Source: Vairimorpha necatrix
Lineage: Eukaryota
NCBI GenBank assembly: GCA_036630325.1
Contig: CP142734.1
Coordinates: forward strand, 930,001-994,000
Reading direction: 5' to 3'
DNA: 64,000 nucleotides
Shown: piece by piece, positions 16,796 through 55,135 of the stretch
Layout of the letters: each line of letters starts with the position of its first letter
Numbering within the stretch: the stretch's first letter is position 1
The notes under the pieces: generated by a model
What the model was told of the DNA's origin: nothing
Seen by the model: only the letters and a program-made list of their open reading frames with translations
Database searches by the model: none
Program-made: the position numbers and the translations under genes

Positions 16796-16878
16796 GGTAA
16801 CGTGGCCGAGCGGTTAAGGCGGTGGACTTAAGATCCATTTATCATATGATAGCGTGGGTTCGATCCCCACCGTTACCA
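16796..16878 (+). tRNA. tRNA-Leu (anticodon UAA)
   Basis: Acceptor stem GGTAACG/CGTTACC+A; D-arm TGGCCGAGCGGTTAAGGC; anticodon loop CTTAAGA; long variable arm; T-loop GGTTCGATCC. Confidence 0.95.
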
Positions 16879-23372: not shown

Positions 23373-25243
23373 AATTTACAGGGGGTCCTCTTATTAAATT
23401 TAATACTATATTTATTACGATAAAAATCTGAATATATATATATCTATGTAATTATTATCTTGTCTTCTGTCACAAAAATGATAATTTTCCGTTTTAATTC
23501 TTTGGAAAAGATCATTTCTCATTATTTCGATTAATTTTTTAGTTTGTGCAAATCCAAACATAACCACAAAAAATGCTTTCAAGCGATTCATAATTGGAAA
23601 AAGCATTAAAATTATTTTTATACTAAACTTTTATAAATATATTGCATCATTTTTATAGATATAACAACAAACAAAATATTTGTATTCTAGATTATAACTA
23701 TTTTTTTTGTTTCTTTGAAATGATCATATATTTGAATTCTCTTTTATAAAACATACTAAACAATTTCAATAGTATTTCATTTATGTTCTTTAATTTTGAA
23801 ATATTTGAATGCAACTATAAAATAAACTAATGTCCGAATTTTTATTTGTAATTTTGAATTTCAATTTTTCCTTGTTCTGAGAAATTTGTAAAGGACAAAT
23901 CTTCTTCATTTTTATAAATCGTCTATTCATTAGTATATTATTCATACCAGTGCTATATTACTGTTTGTCTTATTTGAAAAAAAATGAGGTTTGATTTTTT
24001 TAATAATCTCTAAAAAAACGATCTTTTTTAATTTATCAGGTGACGTATTCATTTTTCTGAATTAAAAAATTAAATTTCCTTGAATAAATTTTTACGATTA
24101 TCTGAATAAATTAAAATAGAACACACAGAACATACAAAATGATATAGAACTAAAGAAGTAAAACAGGTAATAATACTTTTTATAAATATTCTTTGATTTT
24201 AGATGATATTTATATATGATTAATTAAGAAAGAATTTGAGACAGATGTTGTTTATTTTATTTATCTTAAATTAATACTTCTATGTTGTTTGTACTGATTT
24301 TAGTTGCTATTAGTTTTTTTATTGCTACTAATTATAGGATATTATGTATAGTGTCTTTGCTATATTTTTTTGATTTTAAATGTCTTTATTACACGGTATT
24401 TTTAAATACTATCTTGCCAAATGATTGAGTTTTGTTCTTAAATCACAATATAATCATATGATCTAGCACAATTGACAAATTATTATATTATTATTTTATT
24501 AAATATTTTTTACAATCGAGATTTTTATTGTTCTTTCAAATTTTTATTAATTCATATTTTTGTTTAAATTGTGTATATATGAATTCTTTTATAATTATAT
24601 AATAATAACAAAGATAATTTATAAAACAACCATTTTTATTTACTTTTTCTAAGCAAAATTCTAAACTTGTTTTGAGCTATTTGCTAAAATTGTTAAAGCC
24701 TTTTTTGTATTGATTTATACGCATAGTGATGAAAGTTTATTTTTTTTCTTTTTTGACAATAAAATTTTATCATATATTAAACGCTTTCATATCGTTATAA
24801 CATTCTTTATAATTTTAATCCTTTTATTTAAAGGATAAGAATTCAAATTGTATACTAATCTAACAACTACCAAAAATAATCACCTTTTTTTGATTTAGTG
24901 TAAAATTATGTTCTAGTACAATAGTTAACTCATAATCGTCAGAAATTAATATTATAAAATTGTACTATGATTCTAATTAACAGAATTACATAAAAAATTA
25001 TTTTTGTGTTTTTGTAAGTTTTTATATAAGTGTTTTATTTTTTCGACTTTCATAAATTATCTTTGTATTGTTTGCCTTAGTTTATTGTAATATGAAAAAT
25101 GTTGTTAACTAGCCATTTAAAAAGTATTTTCAAAATGACCACTTATGGTCATTCGAAAATGCTTATTATCTATAATTTCCATATATTTAGCTGCCCATTG
25201 TGTATTGTTCTTAGAACTTTCCAAATGCAAAATTTTTATCAGC

Positions 25244-28200
25244 TGTTATATATTTAGATATTTTGACCCCTCATTATGATAAATAAATACATGGGGCCCA
25301 GCCTAATGATGAGTTGACAAGAGTTGACTGTGGACAAGAGTTCAGAAATCGTAGTGAGTTTGAGAGGATAATGCATGAGTTAAGATTAGAGCAAATGGAA
25401 GAAGGATTATGGAAGAGAGAAGTCTACAGAAGAGGAAGTGAAGATTTGAAAAATTTTATTGTTTTGAATGTTCCGATTGAAGGAGGAGTCGAAGAAATAA
25501 GAAAAAAGTTGATTACAGAGAAAGAAAGGAAGAAAATGAAAGTGAGAAAGGAAGAAGAGATAAGGAACATGACATTAATGATTACGGAAACAGTTAAGAA
25601 AGCTATGGAAGCGGAAAGTGCAGAAAGAACTAGATTTAAGAGAAAACTTTTTAGATGTTATGAGTGTGGGCGAACAGGACATATTAGTAGAAATTGCCAA
25701 TATAATAGGTTTAATAAATGGATTCAAGTATTTAGTTTTTAAAAGGTCAGCGATAGATCATGAAGAATGTTTAAGTGAGGATAATTATAAGAAGGGTAAA
25801 AAAGAGCAGGAAGAGAAGAGAAGCAGAAGGATTATAGATGCGAGTGTTGAATATATGGGATTAGATGGATTGAGAAGGAAGTATCATGAGGTATTTTCGG
25901 ACGAAGAGGAGGAAATTAAATATTGTAAGTTGGAAAAATACCGAATTAAAACCGAAGAGGGAAAGGTCGTAAAGAAGAAAGGACAAATGGTTGAACAAGC
26001 GCTTATTGCGGATACAGTAGAACATATTAAGATTTTAGAAAGAAGGAAAATAGTTAGAAGATCAATATCGGAATGGCGGAATCCAGTAAGGGCGCTTAGG
26101 AAGCCAAATGGAAAGATAAGACTGGTAAATAACTTAATGGCTTTAAATGATATAGTTGATAAGGATCCATATGAATTGGCACGAATTAGAGATGTAATGC
26201 GGGGAACGCAGGGATCAAGGTTTTTTACTGTGATGGATATTAAAGACAATTTTTACCACATTGAGATTTGCGAAGAGGATAAGCATAAAATAGCTTTTGA
26301 ATTCAATGGGAGAGTTTACGAGTGGAATAGTATGGTAATGGGGTTTAAGAATTCGCCCCAAATATTACAAAGAACAATGAATACGATTTTTGACGACCTG
26401 TTAGGAGAAGGAGTAGAGGTGTATATGGATGATGTAGTAATTCACGCAAAAACGAAAAGAAAGCACGATGAGCTGGAAAGAAGTTTTAAAACGATTTAAG
26501 AAAAATAATATGAAAATAAATATCAGCAAGATACAATACTGTAAAAAAGAAGTAAAGCTATTAGGGGTGACACTGAATGAAGAGGATTCACAGGCGTGCG
26601 AAATTAAAAAGAATGAGGCTTTAGAATACCCAGCACCAGCAAATGTATCAGAATTAAGAAGATTTTTGGGATTAACTGAATGGTTTAGAAATTTTATTAA
26701 AGATTTGCAAAGTTGACATACCATTTAACAAATGCGCTTAAGGGAAATGGGAATAACTTTAAGTGGATGGAGGAAATGCAAAAAGAGTTTGAAAGTATGA
26801 AAGAATGTTTAAGAAATTTGAAAAGTTTAAAGATAACTGATTATAGTAAAGAATTTTTGCCGAGAACAGATGCGAGCAACGTTGGCATGAGAGCTGTGTT
26901 TTTGCAGAGAAACGGATTGAATGAGTGGGTTCCGGTACAGTTGGCTTCAAAAAAGTTTACGCCAACGGAAAGAAGATACGCTATATCAGAAAAAGAAATG
27001 TACGCAGTATTCTGGGGAATTAAAAAGTTTGAATACGAACTCAGAGGAAGAAAATTTAAGATTGAGACAGACTATAAAGCTTTGAGTGAAATTAGGAATA
27101 AGGCAAATTTTAATAATGATAAGATCAATAGGTGGATAGAGAAGATACAAGAATTTGACTTTACGATAGAATACAGAAAACCGGAGATAATGGTTGTTGC
27201 AGATTCATTGAGCCGCATATATACAAAGAAGATAGTAAGAAGAAACAGATGTAAGAACGTGCAATTAAGCAACAGGAAGGTATGTGGAATAAGCATGTAA
27301 TCGTAGAGAATGGTTTGAATTATTGGAAATTTGATGATAATAAAATGGCGCAAATCCCTGAAGAAAAAGACAGGCTTAAATTGATAGAGAAATATCATGA
27401 ATTGAAAGGACATAGAAGTATGATAAGTGTGTATTACGAGATGAAAAGCAAATATTATTGGCCTTGGATGAAAAAGGATATAGAAGCCGAACTTAGTAAA
27501 TATTAGGTGTGTCAGATTAATAATAGAAAGAAATCCGGGGATGTGATTTTGTAGCAACAAGCCGATATTTAGAAAAGGTAGCATTGGATTTGGTTGAGTA
27601 TAGAGAAGAAAAAAAATACATCGTTGTAGCTATCGACTATTTTACGAGAAGAGTTTGGAGCAGAGTAATTGACGCTAAGGCAGGTAGAAGATTGTTGCAT
27701 TTGTTAAAGAAATGTGTGTCCAGGGGAAGAAGCCCGAAGAAATAATTACGAACAACGGTAAGGAGTTCGTTAACGAAAGGTTTAGACACCTAAGTAAAGT
27801 TCTAAGTATTGAGCACAGGAAAGTAAATACAGAAGCTCATAGGAGCAATAGAAGAGTTGAGAGGGTTATTGGAACGTTGAGGGAGAGTATAGCCAAATCG
27901 AAGGTAAAACATCCGAGGAAAGAGTGATGAAGAGCATAGAGATTTATAATTAAAGTTTCCATAGTGGAATAAAATGTACGCCGGTAGAGGCTGTTCAAGA
28001 TACATCGGGAAAGATAATGATTGAAAACGGAGCTGAAGGAACATACGCGAAGAGATTTGTTGCAAGGAAAAGAGAAAAGTTTTATAGAAATCAGATTGTC
28101 CGTGTTGCGAAAAAAGAAAATTTAGGAGGTCAGACCAAGTATATGAAAGGAAGATTTGTTGATTTGGGAATGATATTAGAAGTATGCCCCAGTGACTTGT

Positions 28201-28352
28201 ATATTGTTAGGCTTGAAAACGGAAGGATAATTAAGAAGAGGCCATATGATTTAAAAGATATAGAGAGGTGGGAGTAAAGTGAGACTAACCGTCTGGAGGG
28301 GGGATGTTATATATTTAGATATTTTGACCCCTCATTACGATAAATAAATACA
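25244..28352 (+). mobile_element. Ty3/Gypsy LTR retrotransposon with 48-bp LTRs (frameshifted)
   Basis: LTRs TG..CA at 25244-25291 and 28305-28352 (1 mismatch); TSD TCAGC; PBS TGGGGCCCAGCC; PPT GGAGGGGGGA; order gag-RT-RNaseH-integrase. Confidence 0.95.
25291..28277 (+). pseudogene. gag-pol remnant: CCHC knuckle, RT (YMDD), RNase H, integrase
   Basis: CYECGRTGHISRNC; MGFKNSPQILQR..VYMDD; TDASNVG, SEKE, ADSLSR; H...GH..C zinc region; NGKEF..VER; several frameshifts and stops; no DTG protease motif seen. Confidence 0.9.
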
Positions 28353-28658
28353 TCAGCTTTATATTCCTCCTAAGCAACTATAAAAGTTTATTAATCGCTT
28401 GTCAATTTTATTCATAGATTTATAGTTGCGATACGCTTCATAGATATTTGCAAAGTTACTATATTGTGTTTTACTGTATTATCGTTTGAAAAAAAAAAAT
28501 TTAATGATTATTTATTGATAAAATTACATATATTTTGTTGCGATAATATTTTCTTCATGCCAAAATAATACTATTTATGTTTCCATTTTTTTGCTATTAT
28601 ATTTTACAATTTTTACAATTGTAGTAACTTATTTTTTCACTCTTTATATTATTTTCTC

Positions 28659-29649
28659 GGCAAAAGAGAACTTAAGGTCTTAATTTTTGAACTAGGGTTT
28701 TTTATTTTTCTTTGTCCTTTTTTAAAAAAAATGAAGGAAAGAATTCGAACCAGATAAGAATTAGAAATCTACTACAATCCACTAAAATGCAAAAACAAAA
28801 TCAGTACTGCAAAATAAATAATGCAAGAATGCGAATAAAACGTAAAAAAGAGTGTTTGCTTATATGTACTTGGCAAGGTTGTAAAAGAGCTATTTCTATT
28901 TGGCATGATACTTTCTTTTGCAAAATTAAACTTCATTACATATCTCGTTATTATTACTGTATCTGTGGATTCAAGAGTATCCCAGTAAGTATATTTGTCA
29001 AATTTTAGGATGTAAAAAATCTAAAACTTTATTATTAGAAAAATTAAACGAAATGGACATCTACAAAAAGTATTTGAATTCTCTGAACATTATGCGGTAA
29101 AAATGTAATAGTAGAAATTGACTAGGCAAAGATTGGTAAAAATAAATACAATAGAAGCAAATTAGTGAAAGGATTACGGTGGTTTGGCATGGTAGAACGG
29201 ACACAAGAACGTAGAATTATAATAGTTCATATTGAAAAAAAGGATAAAAACTCTTTCTGATCTTTTATTAAAATATGTAAGTAGAAATAGCATTATATAT
29301 AGTGTATGTGGAGATCCTACCGTTCTTTGAAAACCATATTTGGACAACACCATATGGTCAATCATTCATTGCATTAAGTTACTCAATTACAAGAGTACAT
29401 ACCAATACCATAGAAGATAATAGCGATTCCCTCAAAGCTTCTATTCCAAATAGAAATAGATCAGTGGAGAGTGCAAAACCTTAATTGTTTAGGTATATGC
29501 TTCAAAGTAATTCTTTATAATTCTGTATTTGTGGCATTATTAAATTTATAATTTTAATTTTTATTACTTCCTCAGCATTTTTTTTAAAAGGGGGGAAAAA
29601 AATAAAAAAACCGTGGTTCAAAAATTAGGACCCAAAGTTCTCTTTAGCC
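28659..29649 (+). mobile_element. Degenerate Merlin transposon related to 36909-37930
   Basis: Imperfect TIRs GGC.AAAGAGAACTT..GGTC.TAATTTTTGAAC; remnants VVEID, GMVERT and VHTNTIE; TSD eroded. Confidence 0.85.
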
Positions 29650-36908: not shown

Positions 36909-37930
36909 GGCTAAAGTGCACTATAGGAATATTTTTTGAACTAGGGTTTTTTTGTTTTTTTTTGCCCCTTTTTTTGAAAAATGGAGGAAGGAATCAAAAC
37001 AAGAGAAGAATTAGAATTTATATATAATGAACTGATAAGAGAAAAAACAATAAATATTTGTAATCAATGTGGAGGTAAAATACGTAAAGTAAGTAAGAAG
37101 GAGTATTTATTAACTTGTACTTGAAAGGGATGTCGAAAGACAATTTCTATTTGGAATGACACTTTCTTTAGTAATTCTAAACTTAGTCATTTACTAACAT
37201 TACAAATACTTAATCTGTGGATTCTTGGGTATCCCAGTATGTATATTTGTCAAATTTTACATTGTTCGAAAAAAACTATATCTACAGTATTAAAAAAACT
37301 AAAAGAAATGAACATTTACGATAAGTATTTGTCATCAATGACCATTATTGGAGGAGAGGACATAATAGTAGAAATTGATGAGACGAAGATAGGAAAAAAT
37401 AAAAACCACCGAGGCAAGCTAGTGAAAGGATTTTGGTGTTTTGGAATGACCGAACGTACGTTGGAACGTAAAATAATACTAGTACATATAAAAAAAGGGA
37501 TAAAGAAACTCTAACAGCACTTTTATTAAAATATGTAAGCACAAAAAGTATCATACATAGTGATATGTGGAGAGCCTATAATTCTTTAGGTACTTTATTT
37601 AGCCAACACCATATGGTTAACCATACATTACACTTTAGAGACCCAATCACGGGAGTCCATACCAATACCATAGAAGGTAATTGGCGTTCTCTAAAAAATT
37701 CTATACCTAATAGAAACAGATCAGCCAATAGTGCAAAACTATATCTGTTTAGGTATATGCTTCAGCGAAATTCTTCTACTTCAGTCTTTGCTGCTTTATT
37801 AAAACTTTTATTCTACTTGTTAATTTATTTTCTTCCTCTCCATCTTCCTTCCTCCATTTTTCAAAAAAAGGGGCAAAAAAAAAACAAAAAAACCCTAGTT
37901 CAAAAAATATTCCTATAGCGCACTTTAGCC
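36909..37930 (+). mobile_element. Merlin transposon with ~85-bp near-perfect TIRs; transposase disrupted
   Basis: TIR GGCTAAAGTGC.CTATAGGAATATTTTTTGAACTAGGG..ATGGAGGAAGGAA; TSD AAAAAACA at 36901-36908 and 37931-37938; VEIDETK, SDMWRAY, VNH..HF.DPITGVHTNTIEGNW; TGA near 37122 and a frameshift near 37495. Confidence 0.95.
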
Positions 37931-45718: not shown

Positions 45719-48145
45719 TGTGGACTGATGGTTTCCCATCAGTCATAGAAGAATGTTTTAAACTATAATTTTTATTGTTCTTCATCTTCATACCCCAAGG
45801 GTATGATTTTCTTTTATATTTATAGGCGGGAAAATATTGTACATTTTCCCTCCATAAACATAGTTTGGTAAAGGAGGAGAATACTTATAGAATAGTATTC
45901 TCTAGTCTCCAGGGTAATCTTAGGACCACTGGAGATCTGTCACTTGACACTCCCCCCTTCTTTAGAGGCTCCTAGGTTACCATTTGTTGACGCGTCTTCA
46001 AGTACTTCCAGTTAATAGCGGATGCGTCATTATTTAGGCTATATACTTTATAGACTCCCTCTATTCCAACCGTAGGGATAGTATATGACTTTTTCATTTT
46101 GTCAATTCCTTTCTTCTGAATGCTTATCGGTGGTTTTCGCTTTCGTACTACGTCCCGAACTCTATGAACACTTAATTTCACATTGTCTTTAACTTTTTCC
46201 TTTTCATTTCTTGGTTTCTTCCGCGAGTAAGCGATAGATGTATAACGAAGTATTTCTTTTTCGTCGGAGTCTTTCCGCCATCCATTTATCATTTTAATAG
46301 ATCTAAATTGTCTATTTATAAACTCCGGCAGCATACTGCCCCTGTAAATTTTTTTCCTCCTTTTTTTGTGAGGTATATGTTCTCTGCCTTTCCCCCAGGT
46401 ATTTAGATGTAGGTATTTTAACTCCAATTCAAAGTTTGTAAATACGGGTGGATCATGTAATTTTTGTATTAAAGGATGTGGGTAAAACTCTTTTTTTTTA
46501 CTTCTGTTAAGTTTTCCCTTGTCATTACAAATTACCATGTCACTGAAAGATGCTTTGATTGGAACGACCGGGAGAGTAAAGGTCGATACAGTTTCTTCCT
46601 CTCCAGTTTTACTCAAAAGCACTTTGGGCTTGACTCTTATCGCTTCCCTTTGACCTAATGGTCTCCTATGTTGGATGCACTTAAATTCCGGACAATCCTT
46701 TAGCTCATCTATAACATTGCTACTACTAAAGCTTAAGTTTTGGTCTTTAATATGGAAAGCCTTCGAATGTACTATGGCAAGTTTATAACTTTTTTCTTTT
46801 CCTTCTTGAAAGTAATTTTCTTTTACAATGTCTGTTAGATGTGTTTCGGATATTTTTCCCGTTGTGCAGACAGATTTCGTTGTTATAGCGCCATCTATTT
46901 TATCAAACCTTTTGAGCAGATTTAGTTTCTTGGCATCTACTATGCCAATTATAAAGTCTTCCGGTAATTTATCTATTACGTAAGCCTCGATCATTTCATT
47001 TTTCTTGATCTTGGGCCTCTTTATAAAGACTTGTATTTTTCCTCCTGATTTGACCTGGCCCCCTATTCCTTCAACCGTAAGAGTTTCTTTTGTTGGTTTT
47101 AATTTCAGTTTTTGAATCATTGTTTTACTAATGAGATTCACTTGAGATCCGGTATCAATAAGAGCGGAAAATTTTATCGTTCCCGAATATAGATTTATCC
47201 TCGGGCGGATATCTTGTAGTTTAGTAGTCGATTTCATTTCTCCTATCCTTAAAAGCATGGCAGAATTTACTTGTTCTGCCTTTTCTCCACAAATTTTATT
47301 ATCTTTTTTTTCTCGTGAGATAGCTTCATAAGATGGTTTTCTACTAAATGTTTTCTTTTTGTTTAAATGATAATTTATAAGAGTTTGTTTGTTCTCAACT
47401 AATTCCAGCAATTCCAACCAATCTTTCGTTTCTTCAATAGGCTCCTTCAACTTATCAGGGGAGTTCCTTCCTATAGAAATCTTTGATCTGGCAAAATATT
47501 CAGGGTTTCCTTTTGCATATCTTTTGAGGTCATAAGCGTAACTTAAAATGTCGCTTTCCTTTGGACCTTCCACATATAGATGCATGAACCTATCTGCTAT
47601 ATCTTCTGTTAGTTTCTCTTTTAAATACTTTTTTTTAAACTGGGTTTTGAATGAATCATAGTCTGTAATTTCATCACCCTCGAACGCTTTGAACCATGTT
47701 AACGCCTTGCCTTTAAGTTTAGATTTGGCAATATCTAGCGTTTTATCTTGCGTATACACATCCTCAATTTCGCGGAACTGAGTTAAAAAATCTTCGGCTT
47801 GTTTTAAAGTTTCGCCGTTAAATTCTGTCCACCTATTGCTCAGACATATTTTTTTCATGTGCGTGATGAGACTATTAAAGTGATCGTTCAAATCCTCTTC
47901 ACCGTTACCACCAATGTGGACTGATGGTTTCCCATCAGTCCGAGAAGAATGTTTTAAACTATAATTTTTATTGTTCTTCATCTTCATACCCCAAGGGTAT
48001 GATTTTCTTTTATATTTATAGGCGGGAAAATATTGTACATTTTCCCTCCATAAACATAGTTTGGTAAAGGAGGAGAATACTTATAGAATAGTATTCTCTA
48101 GTCTCCAGGGTAATCTTAGGACCACTGGAGATCTGTCACTTGACA
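45719..48145 (-). mobile_element. Non-autonomous LTR retrotransposon with 231-bp LTRs and a single gag-protease ORF
   Basis: LTRs at 45719-45949 and 47915-48145 differ at about 2 nt; TSD CAAAC; PBS 47900-47913 matches tRNA-Leu(UAA)+CCA; PPT AAGAAGGGGGGAG. Confidence 0.96.
45972..47987 (-). CDS. Gag - aspartic protease - degenerate RT polyprotein (671 aa)
   Basis: F.GE..QAEDFL..F and LKGKALTWF gag motifs; ALIDTGSQVNLI..FIIG protease; RT-like S.F..PVVPIK..C.D..KLN..K..YP.P; no YxDD, RNase H or integrase. Confidence 0.88.
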   Translation of the reverse strand: MKMKNNKNYSLKHSSRTDGKPSVHIGGNGEEDLNDHFNSLITHMKKICLSNRWTEFNGETLKQAEDFLTQFREIEDVYTQDKTLDIAKSKLKGKALTWFKAFEGDEITDYDSFKTQFKKKYLKEKLTEDIADRFMHLYVEGPKESDILSYAYDLKRYAKGNPEYFARSKISIGRNSPDKLKEPIEETKDWLELLELVENKQTLINYHLNKKKTFSRKPSYEAISREKKDNKICGEKAEQVNSAMLLRIGEMKSTTKLQDIRPRINLYSGTIKFSALIDTGSQVNLISKTMIQKLKLKPTKETLTVEGIGGQVKSGGKIQVFIKRPKIKKNEMIEAYVIDKLPEDFIIGIVDAKKLNLLKRFDKIDGAITTKSVCTTGKISETHLTDIVKENYFQEGKEKSYKLAIVHSKAFHIKDQNLSFSSSNVIDELKDCPEFKCIQHRRPLGQREAIRVKPKVLLSKTGEEETVSTFTLPVVPIKASFSDMVICNDKGKLNRSKKKEFYPHPLIQKLHDPPVFTNFELELKYLHLNTWGKGREHIPHKKRRKKIYRGSMLPEFINRQFRSIKMINGWRKDSDEKEILRYTSIAYSRKKPRNEKEKVKDNVKLSVHRVRDVVRKRKPPISIQKKGIDKMKKSYTIPTVGIEGVYKVYSLNNDASAINWKYLKTRQQMVT

Positions 48146-49617: not shown

Positions 49618-50647
49618 AAAGTATTTTGCCATGTTTTCCATTCGGCTGTCGCTTGAGATTCTTACTCACTAAAAATTCTTTCATTATATACGCGGAATCA
49701 AACATCGGCTTATTAATTTTGATTTGGCTTCAGATAAATCGCCCAAAATTTATACTTATTTCGCTTCCTGAGACCAATAACAGATATGATTTTCGGGTAC
49801 AGTAGGTTAGCCTGAGAAAATGAGGCATCTTATCGAAAGGGAAAGACCCTATTATCAATGCATCTTGAACATTTTTAATTCTGGATTTAATGAGCTGCGA
49901 CGATCAATTCCCCAGGTCTCGCCAACTTGTTGTAAATCGTTGCCATACGGGTTACGATAATACTATCCTATACTTCTTCAAGTTCCATAATTTGGCTCTA
50001 TAAATCCCAAATTTAATAGCACCCAGCGTTTTTACAAGTCATACGATAGTTTAAGTAAAGAAGAGAAGCATTGAACTACTTTATATGATACCTATTATTT
50101 TTCCTCATTTATACGCAATATCTCCTGTGACTAAAGCACACAATGTCTAAAAATCAATTTCTAGATTATTTTACACAATATATCATCAGGAAGACCCAAC
50201 ACATCTTATAGCAAAAATTATGTGTGTATCATATCTAACTCTATTTGAAATTTTCAAACACATTTCTGCCGAACACGGAGGCACAGGCAACTTGTGGCAT
50301 ATATATATTACGACATTTATATGTGGTGTCATTTTTAGAGAGTACTTTTTCTATAAATATTTTAAAAGGAAATATGCAATACAATAAACATATTCCTTAA
50401 AGATTTTTTCATTTTGTTTTAATCAAACCTAATGTGCCTATTTTATTTATATTATGCATCATAACCCTTCTCTGTATATAAATTTTATTGGTTTATACAA
50501 CATTTATCAACAAATTAGTATTTTTATATAATGCTGTACGACGATTGTCGAAGATTATTAATAGCAAAACCAATAAAACATATTATTTTATTGTATTTAT
50601 GTATTATCTCGTAAATTACGTTCTTCCAGCAAATTTGGGTTTGTTAT

Positions 50648-53600
50648 TGTTGATTAAAAAATAAATTCATACATAATGATAAATTTATATTTGAACATCA
50701 TAGTGGAGAATTGTGAACAACCCAGTATTAACATAAAAAATCTAACACAAGAACTTTTGAGGTACTAAATATTTAGATGGTTCAAAAAATTGGAGTCGTT
50801 GGATAGAATTGAATATTTTCTGAGAAAAGCCAGTTACGGTATAATTGAATGGCACTCTAAATTTATGGAACTGACAATAAGTTCCTTTCTAGCATATGAC
50901 AAGTGAAAAGAAGCACCATTGAACGAATTTAGGGAAGAAAGAATTGAAGTAGTATATATATAACGCCTTTTCCAGAAAAAGGATCAGAACGCAAAGGAAT
51001 TCATCGAAAAAGTAAAGAAGAAATCGAAAGTAGTAAAAATGGACTCTAAAGAAACTTTAAAAATTATTACGCTAGAAAAAAGAAGAGAATTTCTGCATTT
51101 GAAGGCTTACATAACGAGCTGTTGTTTTTTAAATGATAACGAACCTAAGCAAGTTTTTATAATGGAAAAAATTGACAAAGAATTGAACGATAAGATAAGA
51201 ATTGAACGATAAGATAAGAATTGTTATGGGAAAAATGAAAAAAGCAATAAGAAAGTTGTTCGTAATGGTCCTAAGGAGGTTGGAAATAAGGGATCAAAGC
51301 CTAAATACAATAACAAAAAGCTGCTTCAAATAAATGAAGTCTTAAAAGAATTAGAAGAGATTATTAAGAAGAAAATTTTGTATACATTGAGAACAAAAAA
51401 ATTATGAAAGTTTTTGATACAGGATCTATCAACAATTTCATTTCTAACACAGTTAGATTAAAAAAAAGTTTAAGAAGAAAAAAACCATGCCAATTAAAGT
51501 TCAAAACTTGTCTTGAGAAAACCTTTGAGGTTAAGTATCATGTCTTATGTAAGTTTTTTTTACAAGAATTTAAAATTTTGTTAAAGTTTTTTTTTTTATT
51601 AAAAGTATGTAAAGAAAAAAATTTGATTGCAAAAGAAGGAATTGAAATAATGATAACTTCAAAAGATCAGTATGAATGTGAAATAAATACTCAAAAAGAT
51701 GCTATGGTTGTAGAGAAAGTATATAGCTTTCCCGAGAAGTTTGAATCCTGAATGGAAGTCTTGATAAGAAATTTGATAAAAATGATTTATATAAGCTATT
51801 TAAATCTACATGGCTAAATAACATTCGACCAGTAGTAAAACCAGATAATAGTATAAGAGTAACACTTAATTTGGTTGCACTAAACAAATTGGTAGAATTA
51901 GACAGATATAGCCTACCAAAAATTGAACATTTAGTAGCAATTCGAGAGACAAAGAATTCTTCACGATTTTGGATTTAAAAGATGGTTTCTTTAACATTCC
52001 GCTAGCGAAAAAGGACCAACATAAAACTGCTTTTTGATTAAAGCATTTCTTGTATGAATGGAAAGTAATGCCGATGGGATTTAAGCATGCTCCTGCCATA
52101 TTAAAGCGATACATAGATCATGTTCTATAAGATGAAATAGGAAAGGCGTGCATAGTTTACGTAGACGACATCTTAATTTATGAAGAAACAAGTGAAGAAC
52201 ACGATAGAAACTTATGCAGAATAATGAAAATATTAAAGGACAAAAATCTTAATATTAACGAAAAGAAAACTATTTTAAAAGCCAATCGAATAAAATTTTT
52301 AGGATACAACAATAAAAAAAAATAAATATCGGCCGAAAATCGAGAATAGAAGCAATAAATAAATTTCAAAATCCAGAAAACAAGAAAAAACTTCAAGAAT
52401 TTTTAGGAATGATAAATTACAAAAGAAATTTGATTTGAAACTGCGCAATGTTATGTGGGCCTCTATACAATCTTAAAGCAAAAAGTAAAATACATATGGG
52501 CAGAAAACCCCCTGACAGCTGTCAAAAGTTAAAAAAAAATTTTAGTAAACGAATAGAACTCCACCAGCCGAATTATAACCTTGAATTTATCTTGAAAAAA
52601 GACGCTTCAACAAAGGCTTAGGTGCCATATTGTCTCGGCCTGACGAGGGACAAGGTTCCGATCGCATATGCTTTAAGAAGTCTAAATCGACAGAAATAAA
52701 TTATTCAATAAGTGAAAAAGAATGCTTAGCTATGCTATGAGGAATGGAACATTATAAATACTATTTATATGAAAGGAATTTAAGACCATTACAGATCATA
52801 AGGCCTTGGAAACACATAATAAGGGAGAAATTAAATCTTTGAGAATTTACAGATAGCTTGATCGACTTAGTAATTTCCATTTAGTAGATTTATAGAAAAG
52901 GTGAAGAAATGTCACACGTAGACGCCTTCAGTAGGAGCTTTGAAGAAACAGAAAATAGCGTTAACGAAGTGACGAAAAATGAACCCTTATCAAAACAAGA
53001 AAAAATTAAAATAATATTCGAAAAGCATAAAAAAAATTCCACATAGAGATGCAAACCCAATTTTTTATAACTTAAAAAACGAATATAATTGGCCTGATAT
53101 TAGCCCAATAACTTTATAGGCGATAGATGGCTGTACTGTATAAAAGATGTATAATCTGAAAAAATAAATTTATATTCGTAACAGCTTATTCTCCGGGCGA
53201 AAAGGTGGAAATAGACATTATAGGCCCTATAAACAAAAATTATATAATACCAGGATTAGATTTTTACACCAGAAAGGGATTTGCAAGGTGTATTAACAAT
53301 TGGTCCGGACAAAAAGTAGCCTATTTATATAGGAAATAAATAAAACGATACCGATAAAACGCTTTTTCCGGACAGCTCAAAAGAAAATTAAACCAACAGC
53401 GTTAAAACTGTTGCAAATACAAATAATATTAAGTTACATTACACGACACCATTTTATCATCAATTGAACTGGAGAGTGGAAAGGTTTAATAGAACTCTAC
53501 AAGAGATGGTGAATAAAAACGATGATGACAAGTTTTGAAAACAAAAGTGCAGGAAGCCATTTTAATATATAATAACTCTTATCACGTAGGATTGGGATAC

Positions 53601-53969
53601 ACACCAACCAAAGCATTAGATAAAAAATATGAAGAATTGGTTAAAATAACACAATTTAATATATATTACAATATTTAAAGGTACAGATAAGATGCTAAAA
53701 GAAGAAGTCTTTACTGTTGGGGATACGGTTTTAATAAAGAACGAAAACGTGACAAAGGGCAAGCCGCACTATTGGAAAAAAGGATTTATCCAGTAATTTG
53801 GAATGAAGTTCTTATTTAATTAAAATTGGTACTAAGTCTCACAAAAGGCATGCCTTGCAATTAAAAAGACTAGTGGACGAGGAGCTGATTCGAAAAGGGG
53901 AGGGATGTTGATTATAAATAATAAATTAAATAAATTCCCATTGCATGATAAATCCATATTTGAACAGCA
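50648..53969 (+). mobile_element. Degenerate Ty3/Gypsy LTR retrotransposon with 53/64-bp LTRs
   Basis: LTRs TGTTGATT..TTTGAACA(T/G)CA at 50648-50700 and 53906-53969; TSD GTTAT; PBS-like TAGTGGAGAAT; PPT AAAAGGGGAGGGA; FDTGS protease, YVDD RT, DAS/SEKE RNase H and integrase remnants. Confidence 0.9.
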
Positions 53970-55135
53970 GTTATATAAGTCTCTTGGCTCCAATGTTCTA
54001 TACTAAACAACATTTTTTTAAAAAAAGCTTTAGTACTATAATTTTTAGATACTTTTTATCTCTATAGTTATGTTTTTTATATATTACTGGCCCCGATACA
54101 TACATTCACAAAGAATATGTGAGATAATCGATTTAATTGAACACACTTATTTATATAAAAATCAAATTATTTGTTTTCTATTCAAATTGTTGTTAGCGAA
54201 GCGGAAAAAATCTGAAGAAGAAAATAAAAATCTACACAAGACAAAAGTGTTCTCTTTGATTTACCTTGAACATGAAACATAATAAAATTGACAATAGGGC
54301 GTCTAGATAATCTTTTTTACAATATAGGTGCTTTGAATTTGTCATAATATCATAAGAGATATTTGTTTTCATGTATCTATTGTTTACTGAGATTCTTAAC
54401 ATTTTATAAATATAATACGTAGATTATAATGTTTGTGGTTTATAAATTCCCATTTATATAATATATACTTTAATTTGTACTTTTTAATAATTCATTGGTC
54501 TTTAAAGACAAAGAAGAAATAATAATTCGATTTGTGATCTATAAAAGATTTATTTGTCAAAATAAGGCAAATATACAAACAATGATTGATCATTTTTTCG
54601 AATCAAAATCTCATCTATTAATACAATTATTGTCCACATATTTACATTAATGTCAGCGTAATTTACTTTTAAATATATCCATTATATAGAAATTCAACAA
54701 AATTTCTAATATAATGCATTAAAATGTATGGTAAAGAAAAGTTTTGATTAACTAGATGGTTGAAGTAAATATTTGAAATAACAAAAATCGTAAAAAATAC
54801 ACAGGTAGCGCTATTTATATTTTACGATTTCATATTGATATTTAACGGCTTCTCTACGTTCTCTTTGACTTGTGTAAAGCAGAACAAACGGTAAAAATTG
54901 TGTTGTTTGTATAAGCCTAGGGTGGGTGGATAATTGAAAATTCTCCTTTTTGCTTATTTTGTAATAACCCCGAATTTGGTTAATGTTTCTAAAAAAAATT
55001 AATTAAACTTTTACACAAAGTATATTTTAGGAAATTTTGAGTTTTGTTTTATTTATTTTTTATATAAAATATTTCTATGGTTAGGAGTTTGACCAATGAC
55101 AATTTAGCTCCTAATTATAAAAAATTTTAATATCA

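Follow-up and report, generated by a model that had tools for sequence, protein, structure and literature searches.

A Ty3/gypsy-type long terminal repeat (LTR) retrotransposon with LTRs of 48 bp is present in a 64,000-nt stretch of Vairimorpha necatrix DNA (contig CP142734.1, positions 930,001 to 994,000; below, the window, in whose positions all coordinates are given). The assignment of this element, designated element 1 (25244–28352, + strand, 3109 bp), to the Ty3/gypsy type was confirmed by its ends, its flanks and its coding content. Two further elements, 2 and 3, are located elsewhere in the same window. Element 1, now decayed, probably belongs to a compact (~3.1 kb) Ty3/gypsy lineage of microsporidia with real LTRs of ~40–65 bp. 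Its tiny LTR is not a one-off, and element 2, which is an independent insertion of a different family, has the same design.

Terminal structure of element 1

The two LTRs of element 1 are identical at 47 of 48 positions, with a single mismatch (T at 25277 versus C at 28338), and the similarity between them ends exactly at the 48-bp borders. The element is flanked on both sides by the same five bases, TCAGC, a target-site duplication (TSD). TGG follows the 5' LTR immediately, and a sequence resembling a primer-binding site (PBS), TGGGGCCCAGCC, abuts this LTR with its first base, while the polypurine tract (PPT), GGAGGGGGGA, abuts the 3' LTR. An earlier reading made from the sequence alone (the sequence-only reading) had described a 3.1-kb gag–RT–RNase H–integrase element bounded by 48-bp TG..CA repeats with one mismatch, a 5-bp TSD, a PBS and a PPT in the canonical positions, and CCCC and AATAAA motifs in each LTR. 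The coordinates and the Pfam matches agree with this description (Table 1), the PBS being a candidate by its position.

A search of the window with the 48-mer revealed two matches at no more than three mismatches, and none was obtained in any of 100 dinucleotide shuffles. A scan was also performed for direct repeats of 24–110 nt that lie 1.5–9 kb apart, have TG..CA ends and are flanked by a 4–6-bp duplication. It returned the pair of element 1 alone, whereas the 100 dinucleotide shuffles together gave two weak matches. Neither a second copy of the family nor a solo LTR was found in the window, either with the 48-mer or one of its halves at up to three mismatches or by blastn of the element.

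Table 1. Features of the three LTR elements in the window
Feature	Position	Strand	Remark
Left TSD of element 1, TCAGC	25239–25243	+	Same five bases as 28353–28357
5' LTR of element 1, 48 bp, TG..CA	25244–25291	+	Direct repeat of 28305–28352
CCCC after A/T tract	25267–25270 (5' LTR), 28328–28331 (3' LTR)	+	Putative core-promoter or start-site-proximal motif
ATG in 5' LTR	25276–25278	+	5 nt after CCCC; reads M-I-N-K-Y-M; ACG in 3' LTR
AATAAA, poly(A)-signal-like	25282–25287 (5' LTR), 28343–28348 (3' LTR)	+	Presumed use as a signal
PBS-like sequence, TGGGGCCCAGCC	25292–25303	+	First base abuts 5' LTR; inside reading frame
gag-like region	25287–25739	+	CCHC zinc knuckle ~25653–25697; Pfam zf-CCHC, E=4.3e-05
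Reverse transcriptase, over two frames	26098–26575	+	Pfam RVT_1, E=2.5e-20 and 2.3e-04
RNase H	26764–27156	+	Pfam RT_RNaseH, E=2e-28
Integrase zinc-binding domain and catalytic core, three frames	27363–27819	+	Pfam Integrase_H2C2, E=1.4e-08; rve, E=5.9e-04 and 6.1e-03
Integrase C-terminal region	27954–28274	+	No Pfam match; 51% identity to the end of the L001 ORF, 91% to P0059
Polypurine tract, GGAGGGGGGA	28295–28304	+	Abuts 3' LTR; kept in L001 and element 2
3' LTR of element 1, 48 bp, TG..CA	28305–28352	+	Direct repeat of 25244–25291
Right TSD of element 1, TCAGC	28353–28357	+	Same five bases as 25239–25243
Element 2, older gypsy-type, 3322 bp	50648–53969	+	Found by tblastn with pieces of element 1
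TSD of element 2, GTTAT	50643–50647 and 53970–53974	+	Flanks both sides
5' LTR of element 2, 53 bp	50648–50700	+	TG..CA
PPT of element 2, GAAAAGGGGAGGGA	53892–53905	+	Abuts 3' LTR
3' LTR of element 2, 64 bp	53906–53969	+	TG..CA
Element 3, LTR retroelement	45719–48145	minus	LTRs 231 bp, ~99% identical; TSD CAAAC; PPT

Other elements with short LTRs

Element 2 is heavily decayed, and its reverse transcriptase (RT) is ~39% identical to that of element 1. When its two LTRs are aligned, 48 positions match, 5 mismatch and 11 are gaps; each LTR begins with TGTTGATTA and ends with CA. The PBS of element 2 does not match the tRNA-Leu gene of the window.

A contig scan that covered bacterial and archaeal genomes revealed three further loci (L001, L002 and L003), and on none of the three contigs are both LTRs present. 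The L001 locus contains an intact open reading frame (ORF) of 911 aa, open at its 5' end, and a PPT nearly identical to that of element 1, after which TGTT.., CCCC, AATAAA, ATG and ..ACA follow within 38 nt. In L002, 47 nt extend from TGTTAT.. to ..CACA and are followed by TGG; the in-frame reading here is M-I-G-N-D-H-M-A. All three are microsporidian-type gypsy elements filed under bacterial metagenome-assembled genomes (MAGs) of Clostridium sp. and Turicibacter sp., and they probably represent eukaryotic DNA mis-binned into bacterial MAGs.

The sequence-only reading had named much longer LTRs in other copies as an observation that would refute it. This comparison was run in part and yielded no refutation, given the LTRs of 53 and 64 bp in element 2 and the ends of ~38 and 47 nt in L001 and L002.

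The size of contigs was also considered as an upper limit on LTR length. Among 29 near-full-length relatives (proteins of at least 985 aa with at least 40% identity to the L001 ORF), 20 are encoded on contigs of no more than 3400 bp, and 18 leave no more than 100 nt outside the ORF. This argument was rejected as proof, since de Bruijn assembly is interrupted at LTR borders and would yield the internal region plus k-1 per side, whatever the LTR length. The contig sizes of relatives show only that the internal part is ~3.0 kb and almost wholly coding.

Coding content and decay

The Pfam matches in element 1 follow the order zf-CCHC, RVT_1, RT_RNaseH, Integrase_H2C2 and rve, which is the Ty3/gypsy order, and the intact L001 ORF has the same order of pol domains; RT_RNaseH_2 was matched as well as RT_RNaseH. 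The closest named protein is P0059, an 895-aa 'endonuclease' of Vairimorpha necatrix, with 75–94% identity over most aligned segments and 59% in one low-scoring overlapping piece. Among the matches listed, the nearest named relatives belong to Nosema granulosis, Vairimorpha apis, V. necatrix, Enteropsectra breve and Nematocida minor. Together with a G+C content of 23–35%, these relatives place the source of the window among microsporidia of the Nosema/Vairimorpha group.

The reading frame of element 1 is broken into eight segments over three frames by ~7 frame shifts, and at least two in-frame stops are present (27504 and 27951). This copy is dead; the broken frame had gone unmentioned in the sequence-only reading. 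At least two of the frame shifts are located in G runs (25292–25296 and ~27540–27546) and for this reason may be assembly errors; the other shifts are outside homopolymers.

An aspartic protease between gag and RT, a trait of Ty3/gypsy elements, is not found in element 1. No Pfam match to a protease was obtained for element 1, for the intact L001 ORF or for the intact relative P0036, even at E up to 10. Precomputed protease domains are likewise absent among the listed matches P0030–P0098, although they are present in more distant gypsy proteins of the same list. In 37 of the 39 close-family proteins in which both landmarks were found (P0030–P0094), no D[ST]G motif could be detected between the zinc knuckle and YxDD; P0033 and P0044 contain one each. 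Element 2 has a DTGS motif where the protease would be located, but Pfam gives no match for it at E values as high as 10. A recognisable aspartic protease is absent throughout this clade of ~1000-aa polyproteins (L001, P0030–P0094 and window positions 25740–26050), which is represented in Nosema granulosis, Vairimorpha necatrix, Enteropsectra breve, Nematocida minor and many further contigs. Judging by these sequences, the clade is characterized by gag, RT, RNase H and integrase within ~3.1 kb, with no recognisable protease.

Probable start of the polyprotein inside the LTR

The ATG of the 5' LTR opens the reading M-I-N-K-Y-M, in which the second Met codon spans the junction, taking its first base from the LTR end and the other two from the PBS-like sequence. 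In element 1 itself, this reading is shifted by one base relative to gag. The N-termini of intact relatives are similar to it and indicate the original frame: P0035 begins with MINKDMANT, and the V. necatrix proteins P0083 and P0075 begin with MINNYMGAIPN and MENKYMGAIPN, respectively, where the LTR of element 1 gives MINKYMG. The N-terminus of P0036 is MGAQPNKDELTNVDCGQE, to be compared with ..HGAQPNDELTRVDCGQE in element 1. An N-terminus of the form M-x(2-6)-M-[AG] was found in 14 of the 29 relatives, and six more begin with M-[AG]. These starts fit a second Met codon at the junction, since A|TG-G.. at CA|TGG encodes Met and then Ala or Gly. On the 3' side, the L001 and P0047 ORFs continue through the PPT into the 3' LTR. 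Since the ORFs start in one LTR and reach the other, an intact element would be approximately one continuous ORF from the interior of the 5' LTR to the 3' LTR.

Promoter-like motif shared with host genes

For comparison with host genes, the window was examined outside elements 1 and 3; 15 ORFs there reach at least 150 aa when read from their first ATG. CCC is present no more than 20 nt upstream of the ATG in 12 of them, and in most cases a T/A run precedes it ('tttttttaCCCccaaa ATG', for example). The background is 5.3–5.5% of all 20-mers with CCC, and 6.1% of all ATGs have it upstream. The LTR of element 1 has the same layout, namely an A/T tract ending in ..GATATTTTGA, then CCCC, the five bases TCATT and ATG. 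CCC followed by ATG is also seen in L001 and in the 3' LTR of element 2. In passages of PMC2803860, rapid amplification of cDNA ends in Encephalitozoon cuniculi locates transcription starts beside CCC or GGG and gives 5' untranslated regions (UTRs) of less than 7 nt; the same start-site signals in Nosema are mentioned in part of PMC5499648.

The sequence-only reading inferred that the minimal promoter of microsporidia allows an LTR of ~50 bp. The layout common to 12 of the 15 host ORFs and the start of the relatives' polyproteins at the LTR ATG lend this real, though indirect, support; short LTRs are permitted by this type of promoter rather than imposed, as element 3 shows.

The position of the motif may also be of practical use. 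A T/A run and (A)CCC(C) 1–9 nt before the ATG, seen in 12 of the 15 large ORFs, is a handy check of start codons in annotating this genome. A perfect upstream signal of this kind, a T-run with CCCC, precedes a 576-aa ORF at 8108–9838 with a weak match to the SWIM zinc finger; this ORF is possibly derived from a transposase.

Element 3 as a contrast in the same window

Element 3, like element 1, is an LTR retroelement with a 5-bp TSD, a PPT and an ORF that starts inside the LTR. Unlike element 1, it has LTRs of 231 bp, a PBS complementary to tRNA-Leu and a coding capacity for gag and protease. Element 3 is young. Its PBS is complementary at 14 of 14 positions to the 3' end of tRNA-Leu (16796–16878) with CCA. 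The single 702-aa ORF encodes gag and an aspartic protease, has no Pfam match to RT or integrase, begins downstream of TATA-like, CCC and GGGG motifs and continues across the PBS. The detection of element 3 indicates that the methods used do find ordinary LTRs and matching PBSs. Given its 231-bp LTRs, short LTRs should be regarded as a trait of one lineage, compatible with the type of promoter in the host but not dictated by it. Element 3 could be a non-autonomous partner of the protease-less elements, although its LTR ends and PBS are unlike those of element 1.

Proposed replication cycle

Within each 48-bp LTR the signals follow one another in this order: TGTT.. as the left integrase end, a TATA-like tract rich in A/T, CCCC of the type seen in host core promoters, ATG, AATAAA, and ..ACA as the right integrase end. 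The positions of these motifs were used to deduce a start site, a poly(A) site and a length of R. RNA would start a few bases past CCCC, so that U3 would occupy ~28 nt (integrase end, A/T tract and CCCC) and R with U5 no more than ~20 nt. The polyprotein ORF would open in the LTR, cross the PBS and, in intact relatives, end at or inside the 3' LTR, which would make almost the whole element coding.

The 5' copy of AATAAA would go unused because it is within ~15 nt of the cap; in retroviruses, promoter-proximal poly(A) sites are ignored. In the 3' LTR, cleavage would take place at or just past the border, and probably beyond it, since only 4 nt separate AATAAA from the end of the LTR; the element may thus lack a U5 of its own. 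In that case a complete 3' LTR would be present in the RNA, with all of which, from the start site on, the minus-strand strong-stop DNA could pair. With cleavage at or beyond the LTR border, minus-strand transfer would therefore rest on roughly 17–20 nt of homology. In retroviruses, strand transfer can proceed on R homology of about a dozen bases. Integration would produce the 5-bp duplication.

Evaluation of alternative explanations

Several observations weigh against the interpretation of element 1 as a copy from a lineage with real short LTRs. Its PBS-like sequence does not match tRNA-Leu (16796–16878), the sole tRNA gene in the window. The stop of AATAAA 4 nt short of the LTR end is a misfit with the classical U3–R–U5 arrangement, which has the poly(A) site inside the LTR. 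No CCC is found in the putative LTR of L002, and the decayed 5' LTR of element 2 has lost it. The contrast between ~7 frame shifts and only one LTR mismatch in element 1 is somewhat uneven. Both LTRs are visible in only two short-LTR elements, 1 and 2, both from this window, and L001 and L002 contribute one LTR-like end each, with lengths read from the motif pattern and not from a repeat pair. The conserved first Met of the relatives could result from conserved nucleotides of the LTR end and from gene callers choosing the longest ORF, and not from real translation. In an alternative explanation, the micro-LTRs would be true integrase and strand-transfer ends without a promoter of their own, transcription being provided by read-through from neighbouring genes and CCCC-ATG being a start-codon context only. 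A U3 of 28 nt leaves very little room for a promoter, the putative L002 LTR lacks CCC, and PMC2803860 describes overlapping transcripts and an overrun of transcription in E. cuniculi. Nevertheless, we consider this explanation unlikely: 12 of the 15 host genes in the window appear to manage with the same short signal, element 1, L001 and the 3' LTR of element 2 all have CCC(C) and then ATG, and rebuilding the LTR in each cycle needs an RNA 5' end inside the LTR, which read-through from outside does not give.

It is much less probable that the LTRs of the family are normally at least 100 bp long and were secondarily shortened in element 1 by a deletion with subsequent LTR–LTR conversion. Such a history is compatible with the presence of one complete family copy in the window, with no other copy or solo LTR. 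However, the 5-bp TSD lies exactly at the outer edges of the 48-bp repeats, with the PBS-like sequence and the PPT exactly at the inner ones, which is the state made at integration. In addition, element 2 independently shows the same arrangement of ends, the single ends of L001 and L002 fit all LTR modules into 38–47 nt, and the ORFs of relatives begin 4–7 codons before the junction Met. As for the idea that the 48-bp repeats match by coincidence or low complexity in the AT-rich surroundings of a retrotransposon fragment, the G+C content of the window is 23–35% and short A/T-rich repeats are common in it, yet none of the 100 shuffles gave any 48-mer match, and in the scan for short LTRs the combination of TG..CA ends, a TSD and PBS and PPT positions around a full gag-pol was seen only at element 1. 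The probability of such a coincidence is negligible. Real LTRs of ~40–65 bp in a compact microsporidian lineage remain the probable explanation of element 1.

Comparison with known elements

In 2006, Xu et al. (as cited in PMC2685015 and PMC3614468) reportedly described the Nbr elements (Nbr1–8) of Nosema bombycis, microsporidian Ty3/gypsy LTR retrotransposons. Element 1 shares with microsporidian Ty3/gypsy elements (Metaviridae), such as Nbr, the RT–RNase H–integrase order, a CCHC gag, TG..CA LTRs, a 5-bp TSD and a PPT. The LTR length of 48 bp (38–64 bp in relatives), the lack of a recognisable protease and the start of the ORF in the LTR may set the lineage of element 1 apart from Nbr. The TRIM and SMART elements of plants are non-coding and non-autonomous, have LTRs of roughly at least 100 bp and tend to escape LTR finders with default settings. 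They resemble element 1 in being very small LTR elements missed by default finders, whereas element 1 encodes gag, RT, RNase H and integrase, though in a decayed form.

Among animal gypsy elements, the LTR of Mag is ~77 bp long. Mag-type elements are like element 1 in that their LTRs are short relative to other gypsy elements; the LTR of element 1 is shorter still, and this element belongs to a microsporidian lineage and has no protease. The integrase-end motifs TGTT.. and ..ACA are common to both (Table 3 of PMC3601003). For the Mag C training set, Table 1 of the same paper gives a mean LTR length of 174 bp.

According to the sequence-only reading, standard finders have a default LTR minimum of 100 bp, and the settings '-minlenltr 100' and '-l 100' are indeed quoted in the methods of 10.1101/137141. 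An LTR of 48 bp is about half of this minimum, which is a tool threshold and not a biological definition. The Nosema apis genome was screened with LTR_FINDER defaults, as indicated in a passage of PMC3726280. In full-text searches of the literature, no LTR lengths for microsporidian elements and no LTRs shorter than 77 bp were found reported, Xu et al. 2006 and Repbase being outside that search; the supplement of PMC4202319 gave no occurrences in the files searched, with one file not covered. There is a real chance that ~50-bp LTRs of microsporidian elements have already been tabulated somewhere.

Other repeats in the window

A dispersed repeat of several hundred bases is present just to the right of element 1 (28684–29421) and ~8250 bases further on (~36933–37681). 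A separate short repeat family was noted at ~31440, 39194 and 41494.

Implications for microsporidian retrotransposons

A broader proposal, which we make tentatively and consider rather doubtful, is that a whole microsporidian Ty3/gypsy clade replicates with LTRs of ~40–60 bp; no other autonomous LTR retrotransposon would then have functional LTRs as short as these. Both integrase ends, a host-type CCC promoter, the start codon and the poly(A) signal would be packed into them, strand transfer would proceed on no more than ~20 nt, and, with no protease of the clade's own, Gag-Pol would stay unprocessed or be cut in trans, for example, by gag-protease-only elements like the one at 45719–48145.

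If LTRs of 40–60 bp are the rule in this clade, finders with a 100-bp minimum miss the full-length structure of a possible main LTR lineage in microsporidia of the Nosema/Vairimorpha type, and element counts, insertion ages and solo-LTR estimates would be off. These elements would also indicate a natural lower bound on the LTR, ~28 nt of U3 with no more than ~20 nt of R and U5, and would provide a natural test of the least repeat homology sufficient for minus-strand transfer. Genome compaction would then have affected a selfish element in the same manner as the host genes: the element would be ~97% coding, its promoter would measure a few tens of bases, and a 5' UTR would be absent.

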